A DNA stretch of 64,000 nucleotides, from assembly GCA_965205095.1 (NCBI GenBank), contig OZ242040.1:1607787-1671786 (forward strand). The letters are read 5' to 3'. The DNA is from Candidatus Multivorans sp. (lineage in GTDB: Bacteria; Acidobacteriota; Thermoanaerobaculia; Multivoradales; Multivoraceae). This document shows positions 14,564 to 41,580 of the stretch, in pieces. Position numbers and translations under genes: made by a program. A model generated the notes under the pieces. That model did not search any database and was not told the DNA's origin. It saw only the letters and a program-made list of their open reading frames with translations. The first letter of the stretch is position 1. The number at the start of each line of letters is the position of its first letter.

Positions 14564-15466
14564 ATGCGACTGAGACGTTCCGAACTGGCCGTGCCCGCCA
14601 GCAACCCGCGGATGGTCGAGAAGTCGGCGCAGAGCGACGCCGACCTCGTCTTCCTCGACCTGGAAGACGCCGTCGCCCCCGACAGGAAGGAAGGCGCGCG
14701 CCAGATCGCCATCGACGGCCTGAACGAGCTCGACTGGGGCAGCAAGGTGCGCTCCGTGCGCGTCAACGACCACACCACCCGCTGGGCCGTCGACGACATG
14801 ATCAGCATGGTCGAAGGCGCGGGCGAGAACATCGACGTCATCATCCTGCCCAAGGTCAAGCAGCCCCGCGACGTCTGGTTCTTCGAGACCATGCTCGACG
14901 GCCTCGAACAGAAGCTAGGGCTTACGCGCCCAATCGGCCTCGAAGCGCTGATCGAGGAAGCCGAAGGCCTCGCCAACGTGGAGGCCATCGCCACCTGCTC
15001 ACCCCGCCTCGAAGCCCTGATCCTCGGCTTCGGCGACCTCTCCGCCAGCATGGGCATGCGCTTCGGCCACGAACTCGACAAGGACTTCCGCTACCCAGGC
15101 GACATGTGGTCCGCCCACCGCGTCCGCATGATCGCCGCCTGCCGCGCCGCCGGCATCGACGCCATCGACGGCCCCTTCGGCGACTTCAGGAACGACAAGG
15201 CCTACCTCAAGCAGGCCACCTGGTCCGCCAGCCTCGGCGCCGTCGGCAAGTGGTGCATCCATCCCAACCAGATTCCCCTGGCCAATGACGTCTTCGCGCC
15301 CTCGCCCAGGGAGATCGAGCAGGCGCAGAAGATGGTCGATCTCTACAACGAGTCCGTGGCGAAGGGGGCCGGGGCTGGAGGCAAGGGCGGGCAGTTGGTG
15401 GATGCGGCTACGTTGCGGATCTATGAGCCGGTGTTGGAGAGGGCTAGGGCTACGGGGAGGTTGTAG
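14564..15466 (+). CDS. HpcH/HpaI-CitE family acyl-CoA lyase (malyl-/citramalyl-CoA lyase-like)
   Basis: 300 aa. CitE-like motifs (LEALILGFGDLSASMG, DGPFGDFRND). Confidence 0.8.
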   Translation: MRLRRSELAVPASNPRMVEKSAQSDADLVFLDLEDAVAPDRKEGARQIAIDGLNELDWGSKVRSVRVNDHTTRWAVDDMISMVEGAGENIDVIILPKVKQPRDVWFFETMLDGLEQKLGLTRPIGLEALIEEAEGLANVEAIATCSPRLEALILGFGDLSASMGMRFGHELDKDFRYPGDMWSAHRVRMIAACRAAGIDAIDGPFGDFRNDKAYLKQATWSASLGAVGKWCIHPNQIPLANDVFAPSPREIEQAQKMVDLYNESVAKGAGAGGKGGQLVDAATLRIYEPVLERARATGRL

Positions 15467-15645
15467 GGCGAAGCCGCGAAGTCTCGCTGAAGGCGCTCCA
15501 GTTCGTACTGCAACGATCACCCGTCGACCCTGACCGATTAAGTCCGTGCAGCGCTGGAAGTTCAGTTACACTGGATCCCTCCCCGCCTATTCGACGGGCA
15601 CGGGACACAACCGTACACCTGACCGAGAGCCCACAGAAACACGAT

Positions 15646-16500
15646 ATGACAATCCCTGAACGACAACTTGAACAATGGACCGGCGTCGGCTCTCAAGCCG
15701 GCTCCGCCACTACGTACGCCTCGATCAGAACCGCCCTCGAGGCACACAACTGGCCGTCCGGAATGAACCACTACGTCTATCTGCAAGGTTCCTATCCGAA
15801 CCACACCAACATCCGCGCCGACAGCGATGTCGACGTAGTCGTAGAAAGTTCGAACGTCTTCTATCACAACGTACCGGGGCCAGCCGAGCGCTTACAGTAC
15901 GGCCTGACAAACCCTGGACACTACGGATGGGAAGAGTTCCGCCATGAAGTCCTGCTAGCGTTGCGCAGTTACTATGGTCCTTCCGTCTCAGAAGGAGACA
16001 AGAGCATCAAGGTGCCGAGGTCCGGCAACCGACTGAACGCCGACGTAGTCCCGGCCCTGCTTTACCGCCAGTACCGTCCTCCAGCACATCTCCGCGCTTA
16101 CGCCGAGGGAATGACCTTCTGGACCCGCAAGACCTCCACCCAGATAGTCAACTTCCCCAAGCTCCATAGGAAGAACGGAGAGACGAAGAACAGCCAGTGT
16201 CTCTCCCGCTACAAACGGTCGATTCGCATGTTCAAGAACGCGCGCAACCGCGCGGGAAGCGACTTCCCGTCCTACTTTGTAGAGTGTCTTCTCTACAACG
16301 TGCCCAACCTGTGCTTCGCGGTCAGCCTCGCCGCGACGTACGACCGTGCGCTGAGATACCTCGAGGGCGCGGACCTCCGCTCCTTCGTCTGCCAGAACGA
16401 ACAGCAGAACATGATCGGTGACGCGCCCTGGCAGATCGACTGGCTCACCGCGGAAGAAGTCGTCCGTGACCTACGGCACCTCTGGCGCACATGGAGCTAG
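15646..16500 (+). CDS. cGAS/DncV-like nucleotidyltransferase (CD-NTase / SMODS-type), CBASS cyclase candidate
   Basis: Pol-beta NTase motif GSYPNHTNIRADSDVDVVVE (GS...DxD) and a third acidic residue in RLNADVVPAL (hDhVP-type). Overlaps the patatin gene by 10 nt. Confidence 0.65.
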   Translation: MTIPERQLEQWTGVGSQAGSATTYASIRTALEAHNWPSGMNHYVYLQGSYPNHTNIRADSDVDVVVESSNVFYHNVPGPAERLQYGLTNPGHYGWEEFRHEVLLALRSYYGPSVSEGDKSIKVPRSGNRLNADVVPALLYRQYRPPAHLRAYAEGMTFWTRKTSTQIVNFPKLHRKNGETKNSQCLSRYKRSIRMFKNARNRAGSDFPSYFVECLLYNVPNLCFAVSLAATYDRALRYLEGADLRSFVCQNEQQNMIGDAPWQIDWLTAEEVVRDLRHLWRTWS

Positions 16501-17411
16501 GAAGACCGTACAGAATCCTGTCCCTCGACGGGGGCGGTGCGCTCGGTGTCTTCACACTCGGCGTACTGAGTGAACTAGAGAAGATGATCGGTTCTCCGCT
16601 GTGGAAACGAGTCGATCTCATCTACGGCACAAGCACGGGTTCGATCATCGCTGCTCTACTCGCCCTAGGCCACCCGGTCGACCACGTGTACGAACTCTAC
16701 CTGGAACGTGTTTCGGACATCATGCGCCGCTCTACGTTGTGGACGAGATCGGCTGCTCTTCACAGGCACGCCGAGGACGTATTCGAGAAGAAGAAGGTCG
16801 ACAGCTTCCTTGTAGACGTTGGCATCGTCGCAACGAACTTGGATTCTAAGCGACCCTTGGTGTTCAAGAGCACCGCCGAAGGGGCACATGGCAGGAAGGC
16901 GAGTTTCTGTCCGGGATTTGGCTGCACCATAGCAGACGCCGTGATCGCTTCCAGCGCCGCTTACCCTATGTTCCGGGTCAAGCGGATCTCGACTTCCGTG
17001 CATGGGGAGCTGCGTGCAGCCGATGGCGGATTCGTCGCGAGCAACCCAACCCTTCTTGCGTTGGCGGATGCCCTCGGTCCACGAGAGAAAGCGCGGGGGG
17101 ACCTCGGCGTACTAAGCGTGGGAACAGGCTCGTATCCGCCAAAGCCCTCCGTGTATCGACTCGTGAAGACACTTACAACGTTGATGCAGAGTGGATCCGG
17201 GGCAGTTGATATGCTTCGCAAACTTCTGTTTAGAGACGTGTGGACAGTCAGAGTAAACACAAAGGAGTCGAGCTCCCGTCTCAAGACGAACATGCTGGAG
17301 CACCGGACGCGCGTACTGCGACGCGTCTATCAGAGGGGACAGGATGCGTTCGGAGAGAACGAAGAAGCTCTGGCTGAGCTGTTCGTTGGAACGGAGAGGG
17401 ATGGCCGATGA
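16491..17411 (+). CDS. Patatin-like phospholipase (CapV-like CBASS effector)
   Basis: DGGGALG oxyanion motif, GTSTGS nucleophile and DGG catalytic Asp motifs. Confidence 0.8.
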   Translation: MELGRPYRILSLDGGGALGVFTLGVLSELEKMIGSPLWKRVDLIYGTSTGSIIAALLALGHPVDHVYELYLERVSDIMRRSTLWTRSAALHRHAEDVFEKKKVDSFLVDVGIVATNLDSKRPLVFKSTAEGAHGRKASFCPGFGCTIADAVIASSAAYPMFRVKRISTSVHGELRAADGGFVASNPTLLALADALGPREKARGDLGVLSVGTGSYPPKPSVYRLVKTLTTLMQSGSGAVDMLRKLLFRDVWTVRVNTKESSSRLKTNMLEHRTRVLRRVYQRGQDAFGENEEALAELFVGTERDGR

Positions 17412-17788
17412 CTACTGGCACGGCGGCAGAGAAGCGCGAACTACGGCTAGAGTGGAACAAGCCAGACGGTCGGTGGCACTCGCTGCGCGACGTGAGCCTC
17501 GATGATCCGAGCGTAGGGGATCAGGATGGCGTCTACATCATCTGGCACGGTGGCCGCAATCGAAGAGTCGTCTACGTAGGAAGCGGAAGGATCGCTACTC
17601 GGCTGAGCGCCCATCTCTACGATGGTCGTTTCCTACCGTATGCACACCTCGGCCTAGGGGTGACCTGGGCCGAGGTTCCAATGAAGCACCAGCGAGGCGT
17701 GGAACGCTTCTTGGCCGAAGAGATGGAGCCGGTAGCTGGTGGGCGCTATCCGAATGCCGCGCCGATTGCCGTGAATCTACCTTGGTAG
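17408..17788 (+). CDS. Small GIY-YIG domain protein
   Basis: GVYIIWHGG...VVYVGSG followed by conserved Arg (TRLSAH), Glu (AEEME) and Asn. The start overlaps the patatin stop (ATGA). Confidence 0.55.
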   Translation: MTTGTAAEKRELRLEWNKPDGRWHSLRDVSLDDPSVGDQDGVYIIWHGGRNRRVVYVGSGRIATRLSAHLYDGRFLPYAHLGLGVTWAEVPMKHQRGVERFLAEEMEPVAGGRYPNAAPIAVNLPW

Positions 17789-17792
17789 CAAG

Positions 17793-18185
17793 GTGATGCC
17801 GCAGTTTCGCCGCTCCGAGCCGCCGGACGTCACGCTGCATGAGGTCCAGAACCAGGATCTGGACCTGATCAGGAGCGCTGGCAATAGGGCCACTCAAGGT
17901 GCGTCAGGAGCCTCTGCCACCGCGTCAAGCACGGTCGCCATCCTACTCACGTTGGCGACGTGCGATGTCCCCGTACCATGGCGCACAATTCTCGGAATGA
18001 CGGCGTTCGCTTGTGTCGTCGGCGCCTTTGTCTTTGGGCGCATGTGGTGGCGGGGCCATCGGGAAGGCCAACGCCGCGTCGACACGATCAAGGAACGACC
18101 GATCGCTGAACGGCCCGGCCCGGCGGTCGACGAGAGGCTCGAACGCCTCCTGGAGCAGCTCACGCGGGAGGAGGAAAGTCCATGA
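17793..18185 (+). CDS. Small membrane protein (two predicted transmembrane helices)
   Basis: Hydrophobic stretches VAILLTLATC and AFACVVGAFVFG. Co-directional and tightly spaced. Confidence 0.45.
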   Translation: MMPQFRRSEPPDVTLHEVQNQDLDLIRSAGNRATQGASGASATASSTVAILLTLATCDVPVPWRTILGMTAFACVVGAFVFGRMWWRGHREGQRRVDTIKERPIAERPGPAVDERLERLLEQLTREEESP

Positions 18186-19024
18186 GTCTCCCCGAACCAG
18201 CGCGTATCGACAGTCTGGCACTGCACGAAGGGCGATTCATGGTGTCGGCTGCACTCTCTCACCAAGGCGATCGCTTCAAGATCACCTCCGCTGTCCTGCT
18301 CGCTCCTGACGCTCTGGTCCTGTGCAGCTTTCATCCCGCCAATCCGGAGATACTGATCAAGCTCTTGGATGGGCGGCACATCAATGGGCACTGGTGGGTT
18401 CAGATCGCAAGCGTGTCCCAAGTCGCAGTCGAAATCACCGTGCAAGACGTCGTAACCGGAGAAGCGAACACCTACCGTTCCATCGAGGGTCCGTTTAGTC
18501 CGATCGCCGACTTCACAGCTTTCAAAGACGCGTATCGCTCCTTCACTGACAGCCCCAGCCCTGAGGGCAACGCCGCTGCGCCGAAGCTTGCTGACATATA
18601 TGACTCTTCAATGCCGTCACAGGAGAAACACATGACAGACTCACAACTCGAGCTCAAGAGGCTCCGCCTCTTCCAGACGATTCATGAGTGGGCCTTCAAC
18701 GACCATAGTCGGCCGTCTTCCTATGATCCGCGAATCACGACTCTCGAAGTCCAAGCAAGGCTACTCGGCCTCAGCCCGAGGAACATCCAGATCCTCACCG
18801 AGAGCATCAGCGGTATCCGCGACCTGGCCATTGACTGGTGGAAAACAGGCCAGGAGGAGATTGGCGGCGAGGAGCGGGTCGAGCTCAACAGGAGGATCGA
18901 CGAGGCCCTCACTCCGCTGTATCAGATGCTTCTAGGTGAGCCCCCGAGCGGGCCGCTAGCTCCAACGTGGCCCAGACCTCGAGCAGGAGCCGACCTCCCG
19001 AAGTCAGAGACGCATATTGGCTGA
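18182..19024 (+). CDS. Hypothetical protein with a domain shared with the IS-disrupted gene at 26372-28513
   Basis: LIKLLDGRHINGHWWVQIASVSQVAVEITVQDVVTG resembles LVKVLDGCPINGYRWVFVAPVTDLGLSLRVTGPTG. Confidence 0.5.
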   Translation: MSLPEPARIDSLALHEGRFMVSAALSHQGDRFKITSAVLLAPDALVLCSFHPANPEILIKLLDGRHINGHWWVQIASVSQVAVEITVQDVVTGEANTYRSIEGPFSPIADFTAFKDAYRSFTDSPSPEGNAAAPKLADIYDSSMPSQEKHMTDSQLELKRLRLFQTIHEWAFNDHSRPSSYDPRITTLEVQARLLGLSPRNIQILTESISGIRDLAIDWWKTGQEEIGGEERVELNRRIDEALTPLYQMLLGEPPSGPLAPTWPRPRAGADLPKSETHIG

Positions 19025-19180
19025 GTTGGACTCGCTCGTGCACACCAGACTCTTGACTGATTTGGAGGCTGCACGAAGCGCGCTCCCTCAAGGCGAACGG
19101 AACAACAACCACGACAACGCCAAGAACGTGCTCGGCCTACGCGAGCGAGCCAGTGTACTCAAAGCACAACCGGAGAGAAG

Positions 19181-19444
19181 TTGATCATGTATGGGGAGTC
19201 GATCTACTACTGTGCGCGTTGTGGCGACAGGGCAGAGGTTCAGATCAACCAAGCGACTCGTGAAGGCCATCCCCAAGGACTCGTCAAGTGCCTCAGGCCC
19301 GGTTGCGATGGCGGTACCGAGGACTACGAGATACTTCTTGAACAGTTGGGAAACCCGGGGAGGAATCCTCGTCCGAAGTTCGTTCTTGTCCCCCCTTCGA
19401 AGTCGAAGACGGACTGCGCAGAGCCAAGAACTCGGTGTAGTTGA
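19181..19444 (+). CDS. Small zinc-ribbon protein (CxxC...CxxxC), hypothetical
   Basis: CARCG ... CLRPGCDG. ORF only. Confidence 0.3.
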   Translation: MIMYGESIYYCARCGDRAEVQINQATREGHPQGLVKCLRPGCDGGTEDYEILLEQLGNPGRNPRPKFVLVPPSKSKTDCAEPRTRCS

Positions 19445-20299: not shown

Positions 20300-20395
20300 C
20301 TTCCTCCTTGGTGACGGCACAGAGAAGCAAGGGCTGCCCAGAAGGGCAGCCCTTGAGCCGACAGCACGCTGCCGGCGGGTATCTGTCGGAGACTA
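20300..20395. repeat. Approximately 95-bp duplicated segment with a hairpin (GGGCTGCCC-AGAA-GGGCAGCCC). The second copy is at 28985-29075.
   Basis: Near-identical strings seen at both places, each at the 5' side of a minus-strand gene. Confidence 0.7.
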
Positions 20396-20438
20396 TACGC
20401 GCAGAGCCCCAAGAGCCCTAGGTACGCCGCGATGGAAG

Positions 20439-21285: not shown

Positions 21286-21732
21286 TCAGGTAGCTCGGGT
21301 CGCCGCTCGCAACCTCCGCGTTCCGAACCAGACGCCCACGGCCCCGATCAGCGGGTTGAGCCAGAGGTACCACGCCGGCTGGCGAGCCCCTGCAGTCGCC
21401 TCCATCATCGACACGTCGTCGGGGCGCGGTCCTGCCGCCATCTCCGGCGCGACAAGGGCATTCACCACTCCGAGCACGATCACCAGGCCGATCAGGATCG
21501 TCGCGCCCTTGGCGTCGTGCGCCACCCAGGCACAGACTTGCCCGCCGATGGACGCGCCCACTAGCCCCAGTACCACCTGGACGAGTACCCAGCCGCCGGA
21601 CACCTCCCACGAACCCGGCTCGAAAGCGCGCGAGGGCCCCACCGTCAGCCACAGAAGCGAGAAGAGTGCGAATTGCACGGCGGCCATGGCGACGTAGCCG
21701 ACGATCGCGGCGAGGATGTTCCTGAGCATCAT
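21286..21732 (-). CDS. Integral membrane protein (four predicted transmembrane helices). A paralog lies at 28528-28959.
   Basis: 148 aa, about 90% identical to the ORF at 28528-28959. Confidence 0.6.
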   Translation of the reverse strand: MMLRNILAAIVGYVAMAAVQFALFSLLWLTVGPSRAFEPGSWEVSGGWVLVQVVLGLVGASIGGQVCAWVAHDAKGATILIGLVIVLGVVNALVAPEMAAGPRPDDVSMMEATAGARQPAWYLWLNPLIGAVGVWFGTRRLRAATRAT

Positions 21733-23040: not shown

Positions 23041-23173
23041 CTAGAGAGAGTCACCAAACGGGAGGGAGATTCGAGTGGCCAGGCACCACAAGCTGATCCA
23101 GAGCTACGGGCTGTTCTGGTGAGCTTGCCCCGGTTTCGTGGACACGACATCCTTTGAGTAGGAGGTATCCACG

Positions 23174-23482
23174 ATGCCAAGATCAAGACCCCGGTACCCG
23201 GCAGAGTACCGGCAGCAGATGGTGGATCTGGTCCGGTCCGGGCGCAGCCCGGACCATCTAGCCCGGGAGTTCGAGCCTTCAGCGCAGTCGATCCGCAACT
23301 GGGTGAGGCAGGCAGACCGGGACGAAGGCCGGCGCGTTGACGGCCTGACGACTGCGGAGCGGTCCGAGCTGCGGCGCCTGCGCCGCGAGGTTTGCCGGCT
23401 TCGGGAAGAGCGGGAGATACTGGCAAAAGCAACGGCCTGGTTCGCTCGGGAGACGGGACCGAAGGGGTCTTCCGGTTCATGA
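23174..23482 (+). CDS. IS3-family transposase OrfA (HTH / leucine zipper)
   Basis: 102 aa, typical IS3 OrfA. Confidence 0.85.
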   Translation: MPRSRPRYPAEYRQQMVDLVRSGRSPDHLAREFEPSAQSIRNWVRQADRDEGRRVDGLTTAERSELRRLRREVCRLREEREILAKATAWFARETGPKGSSGS

Positions 23483-24339
23483 GAGCGCACCGGGCCGAGT
23501 TCCGCGTCACGACGATGGCTCGCGTGCTCGGCGTCTCCACGAGCGGGTACTACGCCTGGTTGAAACGCCCTCGGTCCGCCAGGGACAAGGCGGACGGCGT
23601 TCTCGCCGAGCGCATTCGGGCGATTCACGGACGGAGCCGGGGTACGTATGGCGCGCCGCGGATTCAGGCCGAGTTGGCCGACGAAGGAGTCTTCGCGAGC
23701 CGCAAGCGGGTCGCCAGACTGATGCGAGAGTCCGGCTTGACAGGCGCAAGCCGCCGCAAGAAGCCGGGCACGACCCGACGTGACAGGAACGCTCGTCCGG
23801 CGCCGGACCTGGTCGACCGGAAGTTCTCGGCGGACGCCCCCGACCGGCTGTGGGTGGCGGACATCACCTACGTACCGACGCTCTCCGGCTTCTTGTATCT
23901 GGCCGTCGTCCTGGATGTGTTCAGCCGTCGTATCGTCGGCTGGGCCATGGACTCCTCCCTCGCGACGGACCTCGTCGTCGGCGCGCTTGAGATGGCGATC
24001 GCCCAGCGCCGGCCCGAGGGTGTGATCCATCACTCCGATCAAGGCAGCCAGTACACTTCACTGGCCTTCGGGAAGCGCTGCCGCGGCGCCGGCATCGCAG
24101 TCTCGATGGGTTCCGTCGGAGACTGCTACGACAACGCGATGGCCGAGAGCTTCTTCGCCAGCCTCGAATGCGAACTGCTGGATCGGAGCACGTTCCGGAA
24201 TCGCGCCGAAGCGAGGACCGAACTCTTCCGCTGGATCGAGGGCTGGTACAACCCCCATCGGCGCCACTCCGCACTCCGATACCTCTCGCCCGTCAACTTC
24301 GAGAAAGCCTGCAACGAACACTACGAAGCCGCCGCCTGA
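23392..24339 (+). CDS. IS3-family transposase OrfB (DDE integrase core), expressed by -1 frameshift fusion to OrfA
   Basis: DDE motifs (DRLWVADITYV, HSDQGSQYTS, NAMAESF). Confidence 0.85.
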   Translation: MPASGRAGDTGKSNGLVRSGDGTEGVFRFMRAHRAEFRVTTMARVLGVSTSGYYAWLKRPRSARDKADGVLAERIRAIHGRSRGTYGAPRIQAELADEGVFASRKRVARLMRESGLTGASRRKKPGTTRRDRNARPAPDLVDRKFSADAPDRLWVADITYVPTLSGFLYLAVVLDVFSRRIVGWAMDSSLATDLVVGALEMAIAQRRPEGVIHHSDQGSQYTSLAFGKRCRGAGIAVSMGSVGDCYDNAMAESFFASLECELLDRSTFRNRAEARTELFRWIEGWYNPHRRHSALRYLSPVNFEKACNEHYEAAA

Positions 24340-24915
24340 ACCCTAAACACAAACTGTCCACGAAAGCGGGGCAACTCCATGGGACCGGGACAAGGTCGAC
24401 TGGAGCAAGAACAAGGCAAAACTGCTTGGCCGGCTCAAGGCCAAGGACGAGCCCGTGGACTTTCGCGACCAGGCGGGAATCTACGCCCTCTACGACCGTG
24501 AGTTTCGCCTCCTCTACGTCGGCCAAGCTGGGAGCAGCAACAGCACCTTGTTCAGCCGCCTCAGGTACCACAACACTCTTCACGCCGGAACTCGCGGATT
24601 GGCCTCCCGCTGGCAGTACTTCTCCTGGTTCGGCCTCCTCCGCGTCCTGAAGGGAAGCCAGAAGCTGGCTGATCCGCCCAAGACTCACCAGACGAAGCGG
24701 CCAGAGATCCTCGATGCCCTGGAAGCTGTCGCTATCGAGATTGCCGACCCTGACCTCAACCGGCAGGGCGGCAGGCTGCGCGCCATTGAGGAGTACCTGC
24801 AGTGTGGAGATGACGTCGAAGAGCAGCGGGCCGAGGACGGTGGCTCTGCTGCGGGAGGAAACGAGAACGCATAGTGCCGCGCCTCTAGGGCGCGCGGGCT
24901 CCGACCCCGGCAGCG

Positions 24916-26022
24916 GTGGCGGCCATGCGAGAAGGGACGAGGAGGTCGACCGACGTGGAAGGAATCAAGATCTGGCAGCTCGATGGTTCGCGGGCCATTC
25001 CTCTGGCCTCGGCCAACCGGCTGAGGTCCGAACAGATGCTCGAAGAGGCCCTGGTCGAGAACCCGCACCTCTTGCTGGACGGGTTGACCCTGGTCGGTCG
25101 GCAGACGCCTACAGACGGCGGGCCGCTTGATCTTCTGGGACTAGACCAAGACGGCAGGTTGGCCGTCTTCGAGCTGAAGCGCGGCACACTGTCACGTGAT
25201 GCGGTCGCTCAGGTGATCGACTATGCCTCCCACCTCGACGACCTGGATCTCGAAGAGCTCGCTGGTCACATAGGCGCAGCGTCAGGTGCTCACGGCATCG
25301 ACAAGATCGAGAGCTTCGAGGACTGGTACGGCCCGCAGTTCGGTGAGCTGGAGTCCCTCAAGCCGCTGCGCCTGTTTCTGGTTGGCCTCGGTGTCGACGA
25401 TAGGACGGAGCGGATGGTGAGGTTCCTCGCCAACAACAGCGCCATGGACATCTCCCTGCTGACCTTCCACGGATTCGACCAAAGTGGAAAGAGCCTGCTG
25501 GCCAAGCAAGTGGAAGTGGAGCCAACGGACAACGCGCAACGGACTGTCAGACGCAGGCGCAGGAGCCGGCAGGAACTCCAGCAGTTGTTCGATGAGAAGC
25601 TCAGTCGATGCGGAGTCCCCGAGCTGTTCCACGAGGTCAAGGGCGTGTTCGAGACAGACTGGCCGCGAGCAAGGAAGTGGGCGAACACCTACGGACTCGC
25701 CTTCAAGCTCCAGAGACCGACGCCGTCGGGGCGGTACTCGGTTCAGTATGCGCGGGTCAGTCCCAACGAAGACGAAATAGTCATGGTCTTCTTCCCTCGT
25801 GCCATTCGCCTGTGCAGGGAGGAGTTCAGGCCCCGAGTCGAGGAAGTTCCGTACCAGACGTGGCCACCGGAGCGTGAAGCCCTGCCAGCGAACGAGGACG
25901 AACAGCCGGAGATCCAGTTCCGGCTGACGCCGGAAGTCTGGGACGACCACAAGGCGAGCCTGACCGAACTTGCCCAAACCGTCTACGAGGCTTGGGAGGA
26001 AGAGCGTGCGAATGAGCCGTAG
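24916..26022 (+). CDS. PD-(D/E)xK nuclease-fold protein (NucS/DUF91-like core) with a C-terminal domain of unknown function, paralog 1
   Basis: LDLLGLDQDGRLAVFELKRG...AVAQVIDYASHL carries the D...ExK restriction-endonuclease-like motif. Paralogs at 34868-36025 and 36131-37129. Confidence 0.6.
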   Translation: MAAMREGTRRSTDVEGIKIWQLDGSRAIPLASANRLRSEQMLEEALVENPHLLLDGLTLVGRQTPTDGGPLDLLGLDQDGRLAVFELKRGTLSRDAVAQVIDYASHLDDLDLEELAGHIGAASGAHGIDKIESFEDWYGPQFGELESLKPLRLFLVGLGVDDRTERMVRFLANNSAMDISLLTFHGFDQSGKSLLAKQVEVEPTDNAQRTVRRRRRSRQELQQLFDEKLSRCGVPELFHEVKGVFETDWPRARKWANTYGLAFKLQRPTPSGRYSVQYARVSPNEDEIVMVFFPRAIRLCREEFRPRVEEVPYQTWPPEREALPANEDEQPEIQFRLTPEVWDDHKASLTELAQTVYEAWEEERANEP

Positions 26023-26708
26023 ATGGTGATGTCCCTACAACCGGCTCCTGTCGAGGCCGGCCATGGTCATCGTCGAACACGGCGCTAGCCGCTTACAAGC
26101 CGCCTGACCGGGCACTCATCCAGCGCCGGTACCGTCCAATGCGCCGCCGGGGCTACCTTCAATGGCGTAGCCCCCCTTGTGCTACCGTCCAGCCCGTCAC
26201 CGTAGGTGCAGGCCCCGTGTCGGGTCGCCTGCCGAATACAACAGTCCCGATACATGGCTTGGGGTAGCTCCCCGGACCTGGGGCGAATAGGCCGGAATCT
26301 CTCGTGCCTGCACCAGACGGTGACAACGGCCCGACGCCAATCCCGGTGTCGCGCCTCTGGTCGGAGGAGCCGTGCGCCTGTTCGTCAACCTTGTCACCGT
26401 CACTACTCTAGCCACCTTTAGCCTTCCTCTCTCCGCGCAGTCATTCTCCGTTCATGGCGATGGAACCACGGATGTCTTTCTGCCTCGGCCACTCACAGAA
26501 GGAACTTGGGATATCGAGTTGACTAGGAACAGTCGAAACGACACCGCCTTTCTCTTCTGGCTACGGGGAACCACGCCAAGACTTGGAGCTATCTTCAGCG
26601 GCAGCCGCCGCATCACGAGAACGACTATCGCCGCGTGTTGGTGGTCTTGGTGCCACATCGTGCCCGAGTGGAGTTGCCCCGCTTTCGTGGACAGTTTGTG
26701 TTTAGGGT

Positions 26709-27656
26709 TCAGGCGGCGGCTTCGTAGTGTTCGTTGCAGGCTTTCTCGAAGTTGACGGGCGAGAGGTATCGGAGTGCGGAGTGGCGCCGATGGGGGTTGT
26801 ACCAGCCCTCGATCCAGCGGAAGAGTTCGGTCTTCGCTTCGGCGCGATTCCGGAACGTGCTCCGATCCAGCAGTTCGCATTCGAGGCTGGCGAAGAAGCT
26901 CTCGGCCATCGCGTTGTCGTAGCAGTCTCCGACGGAACCCATCGAGACTGCGATGCCGGCGCCGCGGCAGCGCTTCCCGAAGGCCAGTGAAGTGTATTGG
27001 CTGCCTTGATCGGAGTGATGGATTACACCCTCGGGCCGGCGCTGGGCGATCGCCATCTCAAGCGCGCCGACGACGAGGTCCGTCGCGAGGGAGGAGTCCA
27101 TGGCCCAGCCGACGATACGACGGCTGAACACATCCAGGACGACGGCCAGATACAAGAAGCCGGAGAGCGTCGGTACGTAGGTGATGTCCGCCACCCACAG
27201 CCGGTCGGGGGCGTCCGCCGAGAACTTCCGGTCGACCAGGTCCGGCGCCGGACGAGCGTTCCTGTCACGTCGGGTCGTGCCCGGCTTCTTGCGGCGGCTT
27301 GCGCCTGTCAAGCCGGACTCTCGCATCAGTCTGGCGACCCGCTTGCGGCTCGCGAAGACTCCTTCGTCGGCCAACTCGGCCTGAATCCGCGGCGCGCCAT
27401 ACGTACCCCGGCTCCGTCCGTGAATCGCCCGAATGCGCTCGGCGAGAACGCCGTCCGCCTTGTCCCTGGCGGACCGAGGGCGTTTCAACCAGGCGTAGTA
27501 CCCGCTCGTGGAGACGCCGAGCACGCGAGCCATCGTCGTGACGCGGAACTCGGCCCGGTGCGCTCTCATGAACCGGAAGACCCCTTCGGTCCCGTCTCCC
27601 GAGCGAACCAGGCCGTTGCTTTTGCCAGTATCTCCCGCTCTTCCCGAAGCCGGCAA
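26709..27656 (-). CDS. IS3-family transposase OrfB (copy 2)
   Basis: One amino-acid difference from copy 1 (K instead of R in AKTELF). Confidence 0.85.
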   Translation of the reverse strand: MPASGRAGDTGKSNGLVRSGDGTEGVFRFMRAHRAEFRVTTMARVLGVSTSGYYAWLKRPRSARDKADGVLAERIRAIHGRSRGTYGAPRIQAELADEGVFASRKRVARLMRESGLTGASRRKKPGTTRRDRNARPAPDLVDRKFSADAPDRLWVADITYVPTLSGFLYLAVVLDVFSRRIVGWAMDSSLATDLVVGALEMAIAQRRPEGVIHHSDQGSQYTSLAFGKRCRGAGIAVSMGSVGDCYDNAMAESFFASLECELLDRSTFRNRAEAKTELFRWIEGWYNPHRRHSALRYLSPVNFEKACNEHYEAAA

Positions 27657-27874
27657 ACCTCGCGGCGCAGGCGCCGCAGCTCGGACCGCTCCGCAGTCGT
27701 CAGGCCGTCAACGCGCCGGCCTTCGTCCCGGTCTGCCTGCCTCACCCAGTTGCGGATCGACTGCGCTGAAGGCTCGAACTCCCGGGCTAGATGGTCCGGG
27801 CTGCGCCCGGACCGGACCAGATCCACCATCTGCTGCCGGTACTCTGCCGGGTACCGGGGTCTTGATCTTGGCAT
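27566..27874 (-). CDS. IS3-family transposase OrfA (copy 2)
   Basis: Identical to the copy 1 OrfA. Confidence 0.85.
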   Translation of the reverse strand: MPRSRPRYPAEYRQQMVDLVRSGRSPDHLAREFEPSAQSIRNWVRQADRDEGRRVDGLTTAERSELRRLRREVCRLREEREILAKATAWFARETGPKGSSGS

Positions 27875-28527
27875 CGTGGATACCTCCTACTCAAAGGATG
27901 TCGTGTCCACGAAACCGGGGCAAGCTCAGAGAACCCCGGATTAGTGAGAAGCAAGCTATGGATAGAGCCGTTTCTGTTTGATGGTCGGTGGACCATAACG
28001 TTCACGAAACAGGGGAGCGACCCCGACCCTGAACCACCGCCTCCCATCTACGGCCCATGTACGCCCACCACAGACGTACTCCAGTTCACTGGAGGCTACA
28101 GCGTCCGCATGTGCTGGCAAGCGTCAGACGGGCGCACAGGACAGGCGAAAGCTGGCCTGTGGGCCTCCGGCGAGTCCGGTCTGCTCTGGTTCTTCGAGCG
28201 AGACAACGCCGAAGCACTCGTCAAAGTGCTGGACGGCTGCCCGATCAACGGATACCGATGGGTATTCGTGGCTCCAGTAACCGACCTTGGCCTATCGCTC
28301 CGCGTTACCGGACCAACCGGACAGACGTGGGACTACACCAACTCAGTGGGAGTAACCGCGCCGTCACGAAGCGATACTAACGCATTTAGATGCGCCAATG
28401 AACAACATGAGAAACGAGGTACTCTGCGGACGCAAAGACCCGGTAGCCACGTTCAAGCTGATACACCGAGACAGAAAAGAGGCGCTGGAATCCGATCAGC
28501 AACGAGACCTTAGTGAATTTCGCTCTG

Positions 28528-28959
28528 CTACTCGCGCAGTTTCCGCGTTCCAAACCACACACCCACGGCCCCAATCACCGGGATGAGCCAGACGTACCAC
28601 CCCGGCTGCCGGGCCCCTGCGGTCGCCTCCATCATCGTCACGTCGTCGGGGCGCGGCCCTGCCGCCATCTCCGGCGCGATCAGGGCATTCACCACTCCGA
28701 GCACGAGCACCAGGCCGATCAGAATCGTGGCGCCCTTGGCGTCGTGCGCCACCCAGGCACAGACCTGCCCGCCGATGTACGCGCCCACAAGGCCGAGGAC
28801 GACCTGGACGAGTACCCAGCCGCCGGATACCTCCCACGAACCCGGCTCGAAGGCGCGCGAGGGCCCCACCGTCAGCCACAGAAGCGAGAAAAGTGCGAAT
28901 TGCACGGCGGCCATGGCGACGTAGCCGACGATGGCGGCGAGGATGTTCCTGAGCATCAT
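28528..28959 (-). CDS. Integral membrane protein, paralog of 21286-21732
   Basis: Start at MMLRNIL. Confidence 0.6.
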   Translation of the reverse strand: MMLRNILAAIVGYVAMAAVQFALFSLLWLTVGPSRAFEPGSWEVSGGWVLVQVVLGLVGAYIGGQVCAWVAHDAKGATILIGLVLVLGVVNALIAPEMAAGPRPDDVTMMEATAGARQPGWYVWLIPVIGAVGVWFGTRKLRE

Positions 28960-29149
28960 GTTTCTCTCTGGGCGGGCGCTTGAGGCTGCCCCAGAGAAGC
29001 AAGGGCTGCCCAAGAAGGGCAGCCCTTGAGCCGACAGCACGCTGCCGGCGGGTATCTGTCGGAGATTCTACCTACTTGCATGCCACGCATGCTGAACGGT
29101 GCGGACAACGCATGGGCCACTCGCCGCAGCTCCGACCGGGGAGGGTCGA

Positions 29150-29225
29150 GGCGCCATCGGGCTCCGTTGCCCGCCTCGAAGCCCTCATCCTCGGCTTCGG
29201 CGACCTCACCGCTCCCGGCGGTCCG
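29150..29225 (+). other. Short fragment homologous to an internal part of the CitE-like lyase gene (matches 15005-15050)
   Basis: CGCCTCGAAGCCCTcATCCTCGGCTTCGGCGACCTC. Confidence 0.6.
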
Positions 29226-29855: not shown

Positions 29856-30169
29856 TCACCATTCGCTTCATGAACGGAGATGCAGGCCTTCGTCGAGACG
29901 AACAGGGCGACCATTCCCGGGTTGCTGGCAACGCTCGGAAAGTGAGCCAAACGCCGATCGGAAAGTGATCCACCCTCGGCGGTGTTTGAGTGTACGGGAT
30001 CCGTTCTCCCGGGTGTCCTTCGGAGGTCAGTAGCAGCAGCGGCTGCGGTAGCAGTGGGAAACCGGCTTGGCGGTTTTCCAAGGCGCTGCGGGAAACGGTC
30101 TGCCGTTTTCCGCAGGGCCGGCAGCTTCCGCAGCCGGCGTCGCCGCCTGGTTGGAGCACGCAAGGCGCC

Positions 30170-30919
30170 TCATGCCGTGGTCCTCAAGCGGGTCCGATAC
30201 GAGGCGCCCTTGGTGGTGAGGATGTGGGCGTGGTGGGAGAGGCGGTCGAGCAGGGCGGTGGTCAACTTCTCGTCGCCGAAGACCCGGACCCATTCGGAGA
30301 AGGCGAGATTGGAGGTGAGGATGGTGGAGCGGCGCTCGTAGCGGTCGGCGAGGACGTTGAACAGGAGTTCGCCGCCGGCGCGGTCGAAGGGCACGAAGCC
30401 GAGCTCGTCGAGGATCAACAGGTCGACTCGCTGCAGACGTTGCTGCAGGCGGCCCAGCTCCCGCTGGTCGCGGGCTTCGAAGAGGTCGCGGACGAGGTCG
30501 GAGGCCTTCCTGAAGAGGACCCGGCGCCTTCGCTTCGCGGCCTCGATGCCGAGCGCGGTCGCGATGTGGGTCTTGCCGGTGCCGATGGGTCCGACCAGGA
30601 CGACGTCGTCGCCGCGATCGATGTATTCGCAGGAGGCCAGCTCGGCCAGCTTGGGTTTGGAGATGCCCTTGAGCGCTTTGAAGTCGATCTGCTCCATGGT
30701 CTTCTGGTCGGGGAAACGGGCGGCGCGCATCAGGCGCGCGACGGCTCTGGCGCCGCGATCCCTGATCTCCGCTTCAAGCAGTTGCCACAGGTAGTCCTCG
30801 TAGTCCCACTGTCCGTCCCGGGCCTGCCGCGCCCGCTGCTCGTAGTCACGCAGCACGGAAGGCAGCCTGAGCGTCCTGAGGCCCTCCGCAATGACGGCTC
30901 TGCGCGCGACGCGGCTCAC
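30170..30919 (-). CDS. istB: IS21-family helper ATPase IstB (GTG start)
   Basis: Walker A GPIGTGKTH, Walker B LLILDELG. Confidence 0.85.
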   Translation of the reverse strand: MSRVARRAVIAEGLRTLRLPSVLRDYEQRARQARDGQWDYEDYLWQLLEAEIRDRGARAVARLMRAARFPDQKTMEQIDFKALKGISKPKLAELASCEYIDRGDDVVLVGPIGTGKTHIATALGIEAAKRRRRVLFRKASDLVRDLFEARDQRELGRLQQRLQRVDLLILDELGFVPFDRAGGELLFNVLADRYERRSTILTSNLAFSEWVRVFGDEKLTTALLDRLSHHAHILTTKGASYRTRLRTTA

Positions 30920-32359
30920 GACGCCGCCTCGTGAAGCAGGGCGTCGAAGTCGGCGGCCGCGGCGCTCTCGACCGTGTGGTCTCGAAGGGCTTCCGGCACC
31001 TCGATCGCGAGGGCCTGCCTGTGCTCGACCAGCCCCAGCAGATCGAAGCGGCCGGCGGCCAGGGCCTCCTCGACTGCGGCGGCGACCTCCTCGCTGCCCT
31101 CGTCCGTGATCACGCTCAGCAGCTTGGCGAAGAGCCGCGCCGTCTCCAGCGCACCGTGCCGAGACTCGAGCATCCGCCACAGCTTGCGGTAGGCCGGGCC
31201 GAGCTCAAGAAGCAACTCCGGAGCGACCTGTCGCACCGCCTGGGGTTTGCGCGACAGCTCCTCGAAATAGTGCGAGTAGCGCACCAGGCGTTGGCCGGGA
31301 CGCATCCGATCGCAGCGGTACTCCTCCTCCCGGCAGCGGAAGACGATGTCGCTCGCCCCGATCCGGGCATGGACGTCGAGGCTCTTCCACCGTGAAGGAA
31401 CGGAGTAGGTCGCGCCGCCCAACTGCACCGTCGCCTGGCGAGAGACCCGCACGATCCTGAGCTTCCTCGGCTCGAAGTCCGATCCAGGCAACTCCCGCAT
31501 CGCTTCCCGCTCCTCGTCCCAAAGCGCGGCGTCCTTGTGCGCCGCATCGACCGAGGCCAGCACCGCGGCCGCGATCTCCGCAAGCGTCCCGCCGCGAGGC
31601 GCCGGACTCATGTGCGCCAGACGGATGCCCTTGCCCCGAGCCTCCACGCTGCCCTTGTCGTGACCCTCGCCCGGACGGGCGAAGCACGGCTCGAACAGGT
31701 AGTGGCTCGCCAGGGCCGCGAATCGCTCCGTCAACTCCCGCTCGGACCCGACGCGACGGCGAACCGCCGAACTCAGATTGTCGTAGACCAGACGATGGGG
31801 CACGCCGCCGAAGTGCAGGAATGCCCGCACGTGACCGTCCAGGAACGACACCTGGTCGCAGCGGTCGTACAGCCACACGAACGAGCGCTTCGAGTACGGC
31901 AGATGCATCAGGAACTTCCACACCCGGTGCGCCACGCCGCCCTCCTCGACCGTCACCTCGAAGAAATCCACCTGGCCCGACTCCCCGGCACGGTGCACCA
32001 GCGGAATGAACGTCTCCCGCCGCACACGCTTCCACTCCCGAACGTAGCTGCGAACCGTCGTGATCCCGGACCTCGTAGCCCTCCTCCGCCAACTGGCGGT
32101 GCAGACGAACAGCCGTCAGGCGCTGCTTGGCCGTCGTCCGCCGCGACCACCTGCTCAGCAGCTCCTCCAGTCGCGGCCCCACTCGCTCCGTCACCCACCG
32201 ACGCCGGGGCTTGCTCTCAACCCGGCGCGCCTCGCTCTGGTCCAGGTACCTCCGCACCGTGTTGCGGCTTACGCCGTGCTCGCGAACCACCGAACGCTGG
32301 CTGCGCCCCTCCACCAGAACCTGGTGCCGAATAACATGAACCTGATCCATCCTCAGCAA
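30916..32359 (-). pseudogene. istA: IS21-family transposase IstA, frameshifted between the N-terminal HTH part (32359 to about 32060) and the DDE part (32025-30916)
   Basis: The N-terminal frame reads ...LAEEGYEV. The +1 frame then continues as ...SGITTVRSYVREWKRVRRETFIPLVH. A single-base indel near 32050-32065 separates them. Confidence 0.75.
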
Positions 32360-32425
32360 GTCCTTCCTCCGATCGCGTTGGTCTCATCGTCAAGACCAAG
32401 CTACCGGCCAAGGGCCGAGGGTGGA

Positions 32426-32752
32426 TCACTTTCCGATCGTTGGGTGGCTCAGTTTCCGAGCGATGCCTCCAGCCACGAGACGCTCGTGCTCGGCTTCGAC
32501 ATCGTCGACGGCGAAGGAAGCAAGGGGGATCCCGTCCTCCACGAGCGCCCTCCTGTACGGACCGACCGCGGGGTGTTCAGCAGGCTCGAGCAGCAACTCC
32601 GTCCCCTCCGGAGCTTCCTCGGATACGACGGTGATCCAGGCGTGCTCTCCCACCGGGATGTCGTGCTTTACCCGAAAGCCGAGCGTCTCGGTGTAGAAGC
32701 GAAGCGCCTTCCGCTGGTCGTCCACGAAAACGCCGGTCAGGTGGATTCTCAT
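32426..32752 (-). CDS. VOC (glyoxalase/bleomycin-resistance) family protein. Its 3' end runs into the IS21 terminal repeat.
   Basis: 108 aa VOC fold. The last roughly 10 codons are encoded by IS terminal-repeat sequence. Confidence 0.65.
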   Translation of the reverse strand: MRIHLTGVFVDDQRKALRFYTETLGFRVKHDIPVGEHAWITVVSEEAPEGTELLLEPAEHPAVGPYRRALVEDGIPLASFAVDDVEAEHERLVAGGIARKLSHPTIGK

Positions 32753-34291: not shown

Positions 34292-34855
34292 GTGACCAGA
34301 CGGAAAGGGAGATTCCGAGTGGCCAGACACCACAAGCTGATCCAGAGCTACGGGCTTTTCTGGGACCGGGACAAGGTCGATTGGAGCAAGAACAAGGCGA
34401 GACTGCTCGGCAGGCTCAAGGTCAGGGACAAGGCTGTGGACTTTCGCAACCAGGCGGGCATCTACGCCCTCTACGACCGTGAGTTTCGCCTGCTCTACGT
34501 CGGCCAAGCTGGGAGCAGCAACAGCACGTTGCTGAGCCGTCTCAGGTACCACAACACTCTTCACACTGGAACTCGCGGATTGGCCTCCCGGTGGCAGTAC
34601 TTTTCCTGGTTCGGCCTCCTCCGCGTCCTGAAGGGAAGCCAGAAGCTGGCTGGACCGCCCAAGACTCACCAGACGAAGCGGCCAGAAATCCTCGACGCCC
34701 TAGAAGCTGTCGCTATCGAGATTGCAGATCCCGATCTCAACCGGCAGGGCGGCAGGCTGCGCGCCATTGAGGAGTACCTGCAGTGTGGAGATGACGTCGA
34801 AGAGCAGCGAGCCGAGGACGGTGGCTCTGATGCGGAAGGAAACGGGAACGCATAG
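34292..34855 (+). CDS. Small GIY-YIG domain protein (intact paralog of the IS-disrupted gene)
   Basis: AGIYALYDREFRLLYVGQAG plus downstream conserved Arg/Glu/Asn. Confidence 0.6.
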   Translation: MTRRKGRFRVARHHKLIQSYGLFWDRDKVDWSKNKARLLGRLKVRDKAVDFRNQAGIYALYDREFRLLYVGQAGSSNSTLLSRLRYHNTLHTGTRGLASRWQYFSWFGLLRVLKGSQKLAGPPKTHQTKRPEILDALEAVAIEIADPDLNRQGGRLRAIEEYLQCGDDVEEQRAEDGGSDAEGNGNA

Positions 34856-34867
34856 TCCGCTCGCCTA

Positions 34868-36025
34868 GTGGCGCGCGTGCTCCGGCCCCAGCAGCGGCGG
34901 CGGCCGGCGCCGCCACCGCACGGGTCGTTGCGAGAAGGGACGAGGAGGTCGACGGACGTGGAAGGAATCAAGATCTGGCAGCTCGATGGATCGCGGGCCA
35001 TTCCTCTGGCCTCGGCCAACCGGCTGAAGTCCGAACAGATGCTCGAAGAGGCCCTGGTCGAGAACCCGCACCTGCTGATCGAAGGGTTGACCCTGGTCGG
35101 TCGGCAGACGCCTACAGAGGGCGGGCCGCTTGATCTCCTAGGAGTAGACCAGGACGGCAGGTTGGCAGTCTTCGAACTGAAGCGCGGCACACTGTCACGA
35201 GATGCGGTCGCTCAGGTGATCGACTATGCCTCTCACCTCGACGACATGGATCTCGAAGAGCTCGCCGGTCACATAGGCGCAGCGTCAGGTGCTCACGGCA
35301 TCGACAGAATCGAGAACTTCGAGGATTGGTACGGCCCGCGGTTCGGTGAGCTTGAGTCCCTCAAGCCGTTGCGCCTGTTTCTGGTTGGCCTCGGCGTGGA
35401 CGATAGGACGGAGCGGATGGTGAGGTTCCTCGCCAACAACAGCGCCATGGACATCTCCCTCCTGACCTTCCACGGGTTCGACCAAGGTGGAAAGAGCCTG
35501 CTGGCCAAGCAGGTGGAAGTGGAGCCAACGGACAATGCCCAACGGACAGTACGACGCAGGCGCAGGAGCCGGCAGGAACTCCAGCAGAGGTTCAACGAGA
35601 AGCTCAGTCGATCCGGTGTCCCGGAGTTGTTCCACGAGGTCAAGGGCGTGTTCGAGAAAGACTGGCCGCGAGCCCTGAAGAGGTCGAACTCCTACGGACT
35701 CGCCTTCAAGCTCCAGAGACCGACGCCGTCGGGGCGGTACTCCGTGCAGTACGCGCGGGTCGATCCCAACGAAGACGAAGTAGCCATGGTCTTCTTCCCG
35801 CGCGCCATCCGCCTGTCCAGGGAGGAGTTCAGGCCGCGAGTCGACGAAGTCCCGTACAAGACGTGGCCACCGGGTCGTGAAGCCCTGCCAGCGAACGAGG
35901 ACGAACAGCCGGAGATCCAGTTCCAACTGACGCCGGAAGCCTGGAACGACCACAAGGCGAGCCTGGCCGAACTTGCCCAAGCCGTCTACGAGGCTTGGGA
36001 GGAAGAGCGTGCTAGTGAGCCGTAG
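34868..36025 (+). CDS. PD-(D/E)xK nuclease-fold protein, paralog 2
   Basis: 385 aa, about 90% identical to 24916-26022. Confidence 0.6.
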   Translation: MARVLRPQQRRRPAPPPHGSLREGTRRSTDVEGIKIWQLDGSRAIPLASANRLKSEQMLEEALVENPHLLIEGLTLVGRQTPTEGGPLDLLGVDQDGRLAVFELKRGTLSRDAVAQVIDYASHLDDMDLEELAGHIGAASGAHGIDRIENFEDWYGPRFGELESLKPLRLFLVGLGVDDRTERMVRFLANNSAMDISLLTFHGFDQGGKSLLAKQVEVEPTDNAQRTVRRRRRSRQELQQRFNEKLSRSGVPELFHEVKGVFEKDWPRALKRSNSYGLAFKLQRPTPSGRYSVQYARVDPNEDEVAMVFFPRAIRLSREEFRPRVDEVPYKTWPPGREALPANEDEQPEIQFQLTPEAWNDHKASLAELAQAVYEAWEEERASEP

Positions 36026-41248: not shown

Positions 41249-41264
41249 CGGCCTGCCCGCATGA

Positions 41265-41580
41265 TCGCTGCCCGCTGCGGGGCCAGCATCGACGCCATCG
41301 ATCGCCCCTTCGACGACTTCAGGAACGACAAGGCTTACCTCAAGGCAGGCCACTTGCGCCGCCAGCCTCGGCGCCGTCGGCAAGTGGCTCATCCATCCCA
41401 ACCAGATTCCGATGGCCAACGACGGCCTCGCGCCGTCGCCCAGGGACGTCGAATAGGCGCAGAAGATGGTCGATCTCCACAACGAGTCCGTTGCGAAGGG
41501 GACTGGGGCGGGCGCGAAGGGGGACAGTTGGTGGGCGCGACGACGTTGCGGGTCATGAGCCAGTGTGAGGAGGGCGCGGG
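41265..41580 (+). pseudogene. Degenerate copy of the 3' third of the CitE-like lyase gene (matches 15125-15466) with frame-disrupting changes and an in-frame TAG
   Basis: Aligned DNA: RMIAA...AIDGPFGDFRNDKAYLK ... QKMVDL(Y/H)NESVAKG ... up to the stop. Confidence 0.8.

Follow-up and report, generated by a model that had tools for sequence, protein, structure and literature searches.

A minimal type I CBASS and an adjoining GIY-YIG cassette as two candidate defence modules in an acidobacterial defence island

We analyzed a five-gene locus of the acidobacterium Candidatus Multivorans sp. that lies at positions 15646–19024 of a 64,000-nucleotide stretch of contig OZ242040.1 (assembly GCA_965205095.1, positions 1,607,787 to 1,671,786 of the forward strand). 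We refer to this whole stretch as the window and use its numbering throughout. The locus probably comprises two neighboring defence modules in head-to-tail arrangement, which this lineage transcribes as a single operon. Genes 1 and 2 (15646–17411) form a predicted, complete and minimal type I cyclic oligonucleotide-based antiphage signaling system (CBASS), whereas genes 3–5 are best read as an autonomous conserved cassette and not as accessories of that CBASS. At the core of this cassette is a predicted GIY-YIG nuclease with a small membrane protein as its partner, and our best reading is that they make up an uncharacterised candidate defence module.

The five genes lie close together on the plus strand. 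Gene 1 (15646–16500, 284 amino acids, aa) encodes a CdnE-like member of clade E among the nucleotidyltransferases that resemble cGAS and DncV (CD-NTases), the predicted signal synthase, and overlaps by 10 nt with gene 2 (16491–17411, 306 aa), which encodes a patatin-like phospholipase, a CBASS effector of the CapV/CapE type. The stop codon of gene 2 and the start codon of gene 3 (17408–17788, 126 aa) share the sequence ATGA, with a Shine-Dalgarno-like site, GAGGGA, upstream. Gene 3 encodes a minimal GIY-YIG-fold protein, the constant component of the separate cassette, and is followed after a 4-nt gap by its partner gene 4 (17793–18185, 130 aa; the ATG at 17796 is a possible alternative start), which encodes a small membrane protein with two transmembrane (TM) segments. 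Gene 4 in turn overlaps gene 5 (18182–19024, 280 aa) at another ATGA, preceded by GAGGAA; the gene 5 product consists of an N-terminal beta-sandwich, a linker and a C-terminal helical domain. Because homologues of every gene were found elsewhere, we regard all five as real genes and not chance open reading frames (ORFs). An earlier sequence-only reading of this DNA had placed four ORFs, including the 10-nt overlap, exactly where we find genes 1–4. It had also ended the operon at 18185, and this boundary does not hold since gene 5 overlaps gene 4 and is, moreover, syntenic with genes 3 and 4 at other loci. The gene upstream of gene 1 encodes an HpcH-family CoA ester lyase (14564–15466). A scan of 15300–19400 for promoters and terminators gave nothing better than shuffled sequence, and the window contains no tRNAs.

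Gene 1 matched the PADLOC cyclase model PDLC00788 (E = 1.8e-87) over residues 1–283 of 284. Its best match among solved structures was RmCdnE (6E0K, E = 1.3e-62 over residues 1–283), followed by EfCdnE, EmCdnE, ClCdnE and a Legionella di-pyrimidine synthase, and we assigned it to clade E on the strength of this ranking. The catalytic residues are present (G48-S49, D61xD63, and D133 within ADVVP), as the sequence-only reading had noted from the pattern GS...DxD plus hDhVP. The match to Pfam SMODS was weak (E = 8e-4, under the gathering score), and the domain CD_NTase_C (PF26305) is recorded for a protein from one other sample (L056) that is 99% identical to gene 1. Its nearest genomic relatives, at 57% identity, come from metagenome-assembled genomes (MAGs) of Vicinamibacterales. 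We also considered whether gene 1 might be an antitoxin of the minimal nucleotidyltransferase (MNT) type, and rejected this identity: NTP_transf_2 scored under threshold (E = 0.071) against 1.8e-87 for the PADLOC cyclase, and the partner gene encodes a patatin, not a HEPN protein. The comparison of CD-NTase with MNT models that had been proposed for this gene was thus settled in favor of the former. RmCdnE makes 3',3'-cUMP-AMP and reads the uracil through Asn166 (PMC10442399). Since this uracil-lid residue is retained in gene 1, where Asn169 aligns with it, the product of gene 1 is likely a uracil-containing cyclic dinucleotide such as 3',3'-cUMP-AMP.

Gene 2 matched Pfam Patatin (E = 4.8e-23), the PADLOC model for a CBASS phospholipase effector, PDLC00755 (E = 1.2e-97), and NCBIfam CBASS_lipase (E = 4.3e-34). 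Its motifs GGGALG (residues 14–19), GTSTG (with Ser48) and DGG (with Asp178) are in place, and the Ser-Asp dyad is intact. No Cap2/Cap3, HORMA/TRIP13 or other Cap accessory gene was found in the operon, and genes 3–5 had no Cap match in PADLOC, Pfam or NCBIfam, in line with the earlier remark that genes 3 and 4 are not standard Cap accessories. In having two overlapping genes that both match family models and retain their catalytic residues, the pair resembles known type I CBASS of the DncV-CapV type and the RmCdnE enzyme, although gene 1 is only 44% identical to RmCdnE (global identity). The minimal type I architecture proposed for genes 1 and 2 is therefore upheld by the family matches to cyclase and patatin, the catalytic motifs and the 10-nt overlap, and this CBASS is an ordinary addition to a well-known family.

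One further known system had to be compared with genes 1 and 2. DS-2, described with DefensePredictor, is a CBASS-like system of a phospholipase, a cGAS-like enzyme and a diadenylate cyclase (DAC), in which the third gene is required (PMC13092281). The best NCBIfam matches of genes 1 and 2 are DS2_2 (E = 2.4e-75, 253.6 bits) and DS2_1 (E = 1e-97, 327.1 bits), respectively. However, both scores fall under the curated equivalog cut-offs (350 and 400), and the gene order is reversed here. Furthermore, gene 3 encodes a GIY-YIG-fold protein, not a cyclase, and no Pfam match to DAC or DisA_N was found in genes 3–5. With sub-cut-off scores and no DAC, genes 1 and 2 are predicted to lie outside DS-2.

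Next, we turn to gene 3. None of genes 3, 4 and 5 had a match in Pfam, PADLOC, NCBIfam or PHROGs. For gene 3, curated GIY-YIG sequence models (Pfam PF01541, T5orf172 and others) gave nothing at E ≤ 1 in Pfam, NCBIfam or PHROGs, and a profile of the gene 3 family gave nothing at E ≤ 10 among PDB sequences. Its sequence does contain GVY at 41–43 and VYVG at 55–58, following the GIY...YIG pattern. The AlphaFold model is confident, with a mean predicted local distance difference test score (pLDDT) of 90.4 and a predicted template modeling score (pTM) of 0.83, and its best fold matches in the PDB were the GIY-YIG domains of UvrC (probability 1.0, TM-score 0.64 on the target, root-mean-square deviation of ~2.6 Å over ~80 columns, with a modest Foldseek E of 5e-3); PD-T4-3 structures were among the weaker matches. 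The protein is built from a ~90-aa core and a 37-aa N-terminal extension with an invariant Trp16. Across 78 non-redundant homologues, the catalytic positions are nearly invariant: Y43 is kept in 77, R65 in 75, H69 in 77, E99 in 78 and N123 in 74. Together with the second tyrosine, Y56, these residues are spaced in a manner resembling I-TevI and UvrC. Y56 itself is kept in all members of the gene-4-type group and is replaced by Arg or Lys in many others. By its modeled fold and its catalytic residues, gene 3 is a member of the GIY-YIG superfamily, as had been read from its motifs. Given this fold and the near-invariant catalytic set, we favor the view that it is a predicted nuclease with an intact active site.

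Gene 4 has hydrophobic segments at about residues 41–57 and 64–84. The alignment of its family showed a conserved cytosolic N-terminal motif, two clear TM segments and a basic tail, in agreement with the two-TM protein noted earlier. A role as a holin or in a lysis cassette was considered and dropped, there being no endolysin and no phage context.

The AlphaFold model of gene 5 shows a beta-sandwich at residues 11–115 (pLDDT >90), a disordered linker, and helices at 153–250 (pLDDT 70–80), and gave no meaningful fold match in the PDB or among viral folds. A word-indexed homologue search with gene 5 returned only the query, and its relatives came from exhaustive and profile searches. The N-terminal domain (~105 aa, residues 10–115, window 18209–18526; homologues P0024–P0172) belongs to a family of 5319 cluster representatives at 50% identity that has no Pfam model, and its consensus reads ...GRFxVxVxW...FWFF...NxExxVKVLDGRxxNGHxWVF...TVTDTxTG...Y.NP.G...DT.AF. 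Most members of this family are part of large proteins, where they often form the C-terminus and are accompanied by BNR/sortilin or reprolysin-like domains. PKD or ricin-type domains are also found in shorter homologues, and the canonical Cys pair is missing from the cassette versions. For the C-terminal domain, only one stand-alone homologue (P0023) was found. We considered gene 5 as a receptor for a cyclic nucleotide, and find this unlikely in view of a domain family whose members are overwhelmingly parts of large proteins with additional BNR, PKD or reprolysin-like domains. We also noted a paralogue of the N-terminal domain elsewhere in the window (27944–28513, tblastn E = 5.6e-6), beside the right-hand of two insertion sequence (IS) copies described below, which is closer to the canonical large-protein form of the domain.

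The case for an autonomous cassette comes from the distribution of these genes, taken from both directions. Starting from the cyclase, we collected 46 reference-genome loci with gene 1 homologues (29–57% identity) and their 6-kb flanks. Genes 3, 4 and 5 were found in 0/46 of these CdnE-family loci by tblastn, and hidden Markov models (HMMs) of gene 3, gene 4, the channel-like partner introduced below and the gene 5 N-terminal domain likewise found 0/46. The patatin effector was shared by only two of the 46 loci (L001 and L002), where the downstream genes are unrelated. The synteny comparison called for by the sequence-only reading thus goes against its proposal of an undescribed CBASS variant with an appended nuclease and membrane protein, as none of the 46 homologous cyclase loci holds genes 3 and 4.

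Starting from gene 3, a first search gave 20 relatives, the closest at 56–63% identity. Gene 3, gene 4 and the gene 5 N-terminal domain (~115 residues) occur in a row at several loci (L047, L048–50, L053–54 and L061), and one more (L055) has genes 3 and 4 on a contig that ends inside gene 4. None of these loci has a CBASS upstream; each instead has a separate upstream intergenic region, and all keep close or overlapping gene junctions as in the window. Their neighbors include an N6_N4 methyltransferase/XhoI restriction-modification pair, another methyltransferase, an IS3 element with a group II intron, and core metabolic genes. A scan of Joint Genome Institute (JGI) metagenomes with a tight gene 3 alignment, the broader one being too divergent, yielded 229 relatives, from which we retained 80 loci; IMG/VR gave a further 4 relatives, and 50,697 phage genomes and 72,556 plasmids gave 0 matches. 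After collapsing at 95% identity, 78 gene 3 lineages remained, whose partners were identified by clustering the neighboring ORFs. A CD-NTase lies near gene 3 in only 3/78 lineages, namely the window, L113 and L121. The latter two carry a type I CBASS (3401–4896 in L113 and 1465–3048 in L121) with a PDLC00788-type cyclase, 37–39% identical to gene 1, and a Cap15 effector with two TM segments. This CBASS is convergent (tail to tail) with the gene 3 homologue and a small TM protein, at a distance of ~320–430 bp. We also scanned 263 neighboring ORFs from 76 lineages with PADLOC, and found, among other defence families, mad2/mad8 (5 ORFs), RmrA (3 ORFs) and NERD+UvrD (3 ORFs), together with ThsB, RT-TIR, methyltransferases, AriA, PDC-S66/S68 and PLD+SNF2. 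CBASS is therefore one neighbor among many defence families, which fits co-location in defence islands. Meanwhile, a near-identical copy of the whole five-gene block (96.4% nucleotide identity) was found in one other sample (L056), indicating that the juxtaposition of CBASS and cassette is real and limited to this lineage. That gene 3 is coupled to the patatin gene through ATGA is then best read as a lineage-specific juxtaposition inside a ~38-kb defence island.

The membrane partner of gene 3 varies. A gene-4-type two-TM protein is encoded directly downstream of the gene 3 homologue at ~30 loci, which amount to 23 non-redundant lineages (5 also with the gene 5 N-terminal domain). In 16 other lineages, an Ion_trans_2 protein of ~317 aa (Pfam E = 9.5e-16) is encoded directly upstream (L063, L067, L078–L082, L084–85, L097, L102, L124, L134–35, L138 and L140). 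This K+-channel-like partner has an intact TLGYGD filter and a long cytoplasmic helical tail, and no PADLOC match; in L079–82, the channel/gene 3 pair is followed by a PLD+SNF2 helicase. The remaining 39 lineages have neither partner type, many of them on short contigs. The two partner types never occur together in the 78 lineages, and hhalign indicated that gene 4 and the K+-channel-like protein are not homologous; with this result, the idea of a gene-3-binding domain shared by both was dropped. Two further arrangements were seen: a Zn-ribbon/1-TM protein downstream of the gene 3 homologue in L113, and a gene 3 domain fused to an N-terminal TM helix (P0020).

How might the two modules work? 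In the first, phage infection would lead the clade E CD-NTase to make a cyclic dinucleotide, which would activate the patatin phospholipase to degrade membrane lipids and so abort the infection. Family membership and catalytic residues were computed here, while we infer product and phenotype by comparison with RmCdnE and DncV-CapV. In the second, gene 3 would be the catalytic effector, working with a membrane protein: gene 4 in the window, and elsewhere a K+-channel-like protein, a Zn-ribbon/TM protein or a fused TM helix. These roles are suggested by an active site that is invariant while the membrane part varies, and gene 3 would have to be a self-sufficient effector, as some lineages have it alone or fused to a simple TM anchor. 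The membrane partner would tether, restrain or position the nuclease at the inner membrane, keeping it off the chromosome and close to sites of phage DNA entry or of membrane perturbation. An adaptor role would fall to gene 5, which is found only in the closest subfamily.

This model draws on SNIPE, a single protein with a TM region, DUF4041 and a GIY-YIG domain that cuts phage DNA during injection; without the TM region SNIPE is toxic through autoimmunity, and its membrane-targeting region is highly variable among homologues (bioRxiv 10.1101/2025.11.03.685801). The gene 3 cassettes resemble SNIPE/PD-lambda-1 in pairing a GIY-YIG protein that has a conserved active site with a variable membrane-targeting part in a defence context, and in P0020 a TM helix is even fused to the gene 3 domain. 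They differ in that a 126-aa nuclease-like protein and a membrane protein are here encoded by separate genes, and in that some partners are K+-channel-like. Gene 3 itself does not belong to SNIPE/PD-lambda-1, having no TM segment, no DUF4041 and no PADLOC match at E ≤ 1. By analogy, the mechanism of the second module is most likely a split form of SNIPE/PD-lambda-1. The GIY-YIG fold is also common to PD-T4-3, Uzume and FS_GIY_YIG, but all three are single-gene systems whose proteins are larger, and no PADLOC model of PD-T4-3 or Uzume is matched by gene 3. Zorya, Kiwa and RexAB also combine a membrane protein with a nucleic-acid-directed protein. The channel-like partner of 16 lineages recalls RexB and ZorAB by analogy only; no sequence or domain relationship to Zorya, Kiwa or RexAB was found, and the partners here are much smaller. 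The K+ filter, intact in one partner class, would also suit a RexAB-like direction, with gene 3 sensing DNA and gating a partner that conducts ions; we rate this as somewhat less likely than the split SNIPE form.

Several observations weigh against the reading of two independent modules with a tethered nuclease. Genes 2–5 are translationally coupled and the five-gene block is kept in L056, so the cassette may be co-regulated with the CBASS and possibly engage in cross-talk with it. The three co-localizations with cyclases of the PDLC00788 family may exceed chance. Half of the gene 3 lineages (39/78) lack a recognized membrane partner, with the caveat that short contigs are common among them. 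As gene 3 has neither a match to PADLOC PD-Lambda-1 nor DUF4041, its analogy to SNIPE is one of function only, and an intact K+ filter would suit an effector just as well as a tether. The first two of these points bear on an alternative in which genes 1–5 are one extended CBASS, with genes 3–5 as extra effectors or regulators under cyclic-nucleotide control and with the DAC of DS-2 as a precedent. This alternative keeps some weight because of the same-strand coupling of the five genes by ATGA overlaps and Shine-Dalgarno-like sites from gene 2 through gene 5, the conservation of the block in L056, the adjoining cyclases in L113 and L121, which belong to the PADLOC family of gene 1, and a DS-2 precedent whose models genes 1 and 2 match and whose third gene is needed. 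Yet it would have to accommodate the absence of genes 3, 4 and 5 from all 46 CdnE-family loci, 75/78 gene 3 lineages without a CD-NTase in the recovered DNA, and a trio of gene 3, gene 4 and the gene 5 N-terminal domain that occurs alone in five metagenomic lineages. The CBASS of L113 and L121 is convergent and comes with a Cap15 effector of its own; genes 3–5 match no CBASS or Cap model in PADLOC and no known nucleotide-receptor domain; and the DS-2 scores are sub-cut-off, with the DAC absent. We therefore consider an extended CBASS improbable.

There is a small but real chance that genes 3 and 4, perhaps with gene 5, serve no defence function at all, and instead form a toxin-antitoxin or addiction pair, or have a membrane-based role in DNA processing or K+-channel regulation on mobile islands. 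They are small, closely coupled genes in variable regions beside IS elements, the defence libraries used here do not recognize them, and one partner class has a canonical K+ channel fold. Nevertheless, defence families recur among the neighbors of gene 3, the cassette in the window sits within a dense defence island, and a conserved nuclease with interchangeable membrane parts matches the SNIPE pattern; many toxin-antitoxin pairs are themselves defence systems, so that this alternative overlaps with the candidate defence module that we favor. Much the least probable is a selfish insertion of the GIY-YIG homing-endonuclease type, of which gene 3 would be one of three copies in the window. The intact active site on a GIY-YIG fold, the IS elements and duplications nearby, and the four homologues on IMG/VR contigs would all suit a homing endonuclease. 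On the other hand, the 126-aa protein has no DNA-binding or NUMOD-type domain and is not located in an intron or intein, the family is missing from the phage genomes and plasmids searched, and gene 3 is paired with a membrane-protein gene in half of its lineages, the gene-4-type partner following it directly in 23/78, often overlapping or nearly abutting. As for the two supposed sister copies, which the sequence-only reading had counted as members of the same family, the resemblance is confined to the motif (BLAST E ~0.9, gene 3 family HMM 8 bits, hhalign probability 14%), and both belong to a segmental duplication of an apparently different, NucS_C-paired family. The fallback offered by that reading, an independent element, was thus right about independence and wrong about a lone selfish gene, since gene 3 turns out to be part of a conserved cassette of several genes that includes a membrane partner.

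The locus lies in defence-rich surroundings. The G+C content drops from ~0.70 to ~0.60 near 15.5 kb and stays low until ~53.5 kb, and this stretch (15500–53500, ~38 kb) is a dense defence island. Core genes on its flanks fall into clusters at ≥90% identity with proteins of Acidobacteriota/Holophagales MAGs, in keeping with an acidobacterial source. Besides the locus described above, it encodes three NucS_C/PDC-S11-like proteins (24916–26022, 34868–36025 and 36131–37129), a pVip-like radical-SAM protein with DUF6375 (42042–43384), an Avs2-like NACHT protein (43408–47433) and, on the minus strand, a GmrSD_N+HNH protein (49020–50456) and an HSDR_N/N6_Mtase/specificity fusion protein (50511–53180). 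The other two GIY-YIG-like genes of the window (24455–24874 and 34292–34855) are paired with NucS_C/PDC-S11-like proteins, not with membrane proteins. They lie in a segmental duplication (24380–26022 versus 34361–36025, ~90–92% identity) of a pair in which a 187-aa protein with the GIY-YIG motif precedes a 368/385-aa NucS_C (PDC-S11-like) protein; the former has a weak match to PADLOC UzuA (E = 9e-4). Here, too, a GIY-YIG-like protein may have a nuclease as its partner, in what would be another uncharacterised pair.

Two IS3-family copies (23120–24379 and 26669–27928; 1260 nt each, with a helix-turn-helix ORF and an rve transposase) are 100% identical and inverted, and enclose 2.3 kb, an arrangement like that of a composite transposon. 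A GIY-YIG-like gene is split by the left copy, and the parts of this gene (23072–23119 and from 24380) match the intact paralogue at 34316–34363 and 34361–34660; as the matches on both sides overlap in the paralogue, a 3-bp target duplication is suggested. We also noted that the 3' part of the CoA ester lyase gene (15124–15387) is repeated as a frameshifted remnant at 41257–41521 (87–89% identity), and a 43-nt fragment of the gene (15003–15045) at 29170–29212 (95%). The repeats look as if site-specific integration had taken place once or twice at the 3' end of the lyase gene, in which case the CBASS and the cassette would lie at the left edge of a ~26-kb element. Further repeats (20337–20398 and 21308–21607 versus 29010–29071 and 28535–28834, 90–95% identity) include paralogous small membrane proteins (21286–21732 and 28528–29040, both on the minus strand), which points to element ends that were duplicated or to a rearrangement within the island. 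Lastly, an IS-like unit at 29920–32474, bounded by 61-nt inverted repeats (85% complementary), encodes an rve/Mu-transposase_C protein on the minus strand (30916–32025).

Collectively, what is new here is the gene 3 family, with ~229 metagenomic relatives in 78 lineages that lie outside the models of Pfam, PADLOC, NCBIfam and PHROGs. Our results also caution that genes translationally coupled to a CBASS operon are not thereby Cap accessories. More speculatively, and with rather less confidence than we place in the two modules themselves, gene 3 homologues and their interchangeable membrane partners might constitute a new, environmentally widespread anti-phage family of split, membrane-coupled GIY-YIG nucleases, in which the cassette, transcriptionally fused in this lineage to a membrane-destroying CBASS, could act in sequence with it. 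Where the partner is channel-like, the activity of the nuclease may depend on ion flux or on the state of the membrane. If validated, the family would extend the principle of a membrane-localized, chromosome-sparing nuclease, as in SNIPE, to a two-component form, and would offer a compact system in which to study the control of a nuclease by a membrane protein, which in some lineages is a K+ channel.

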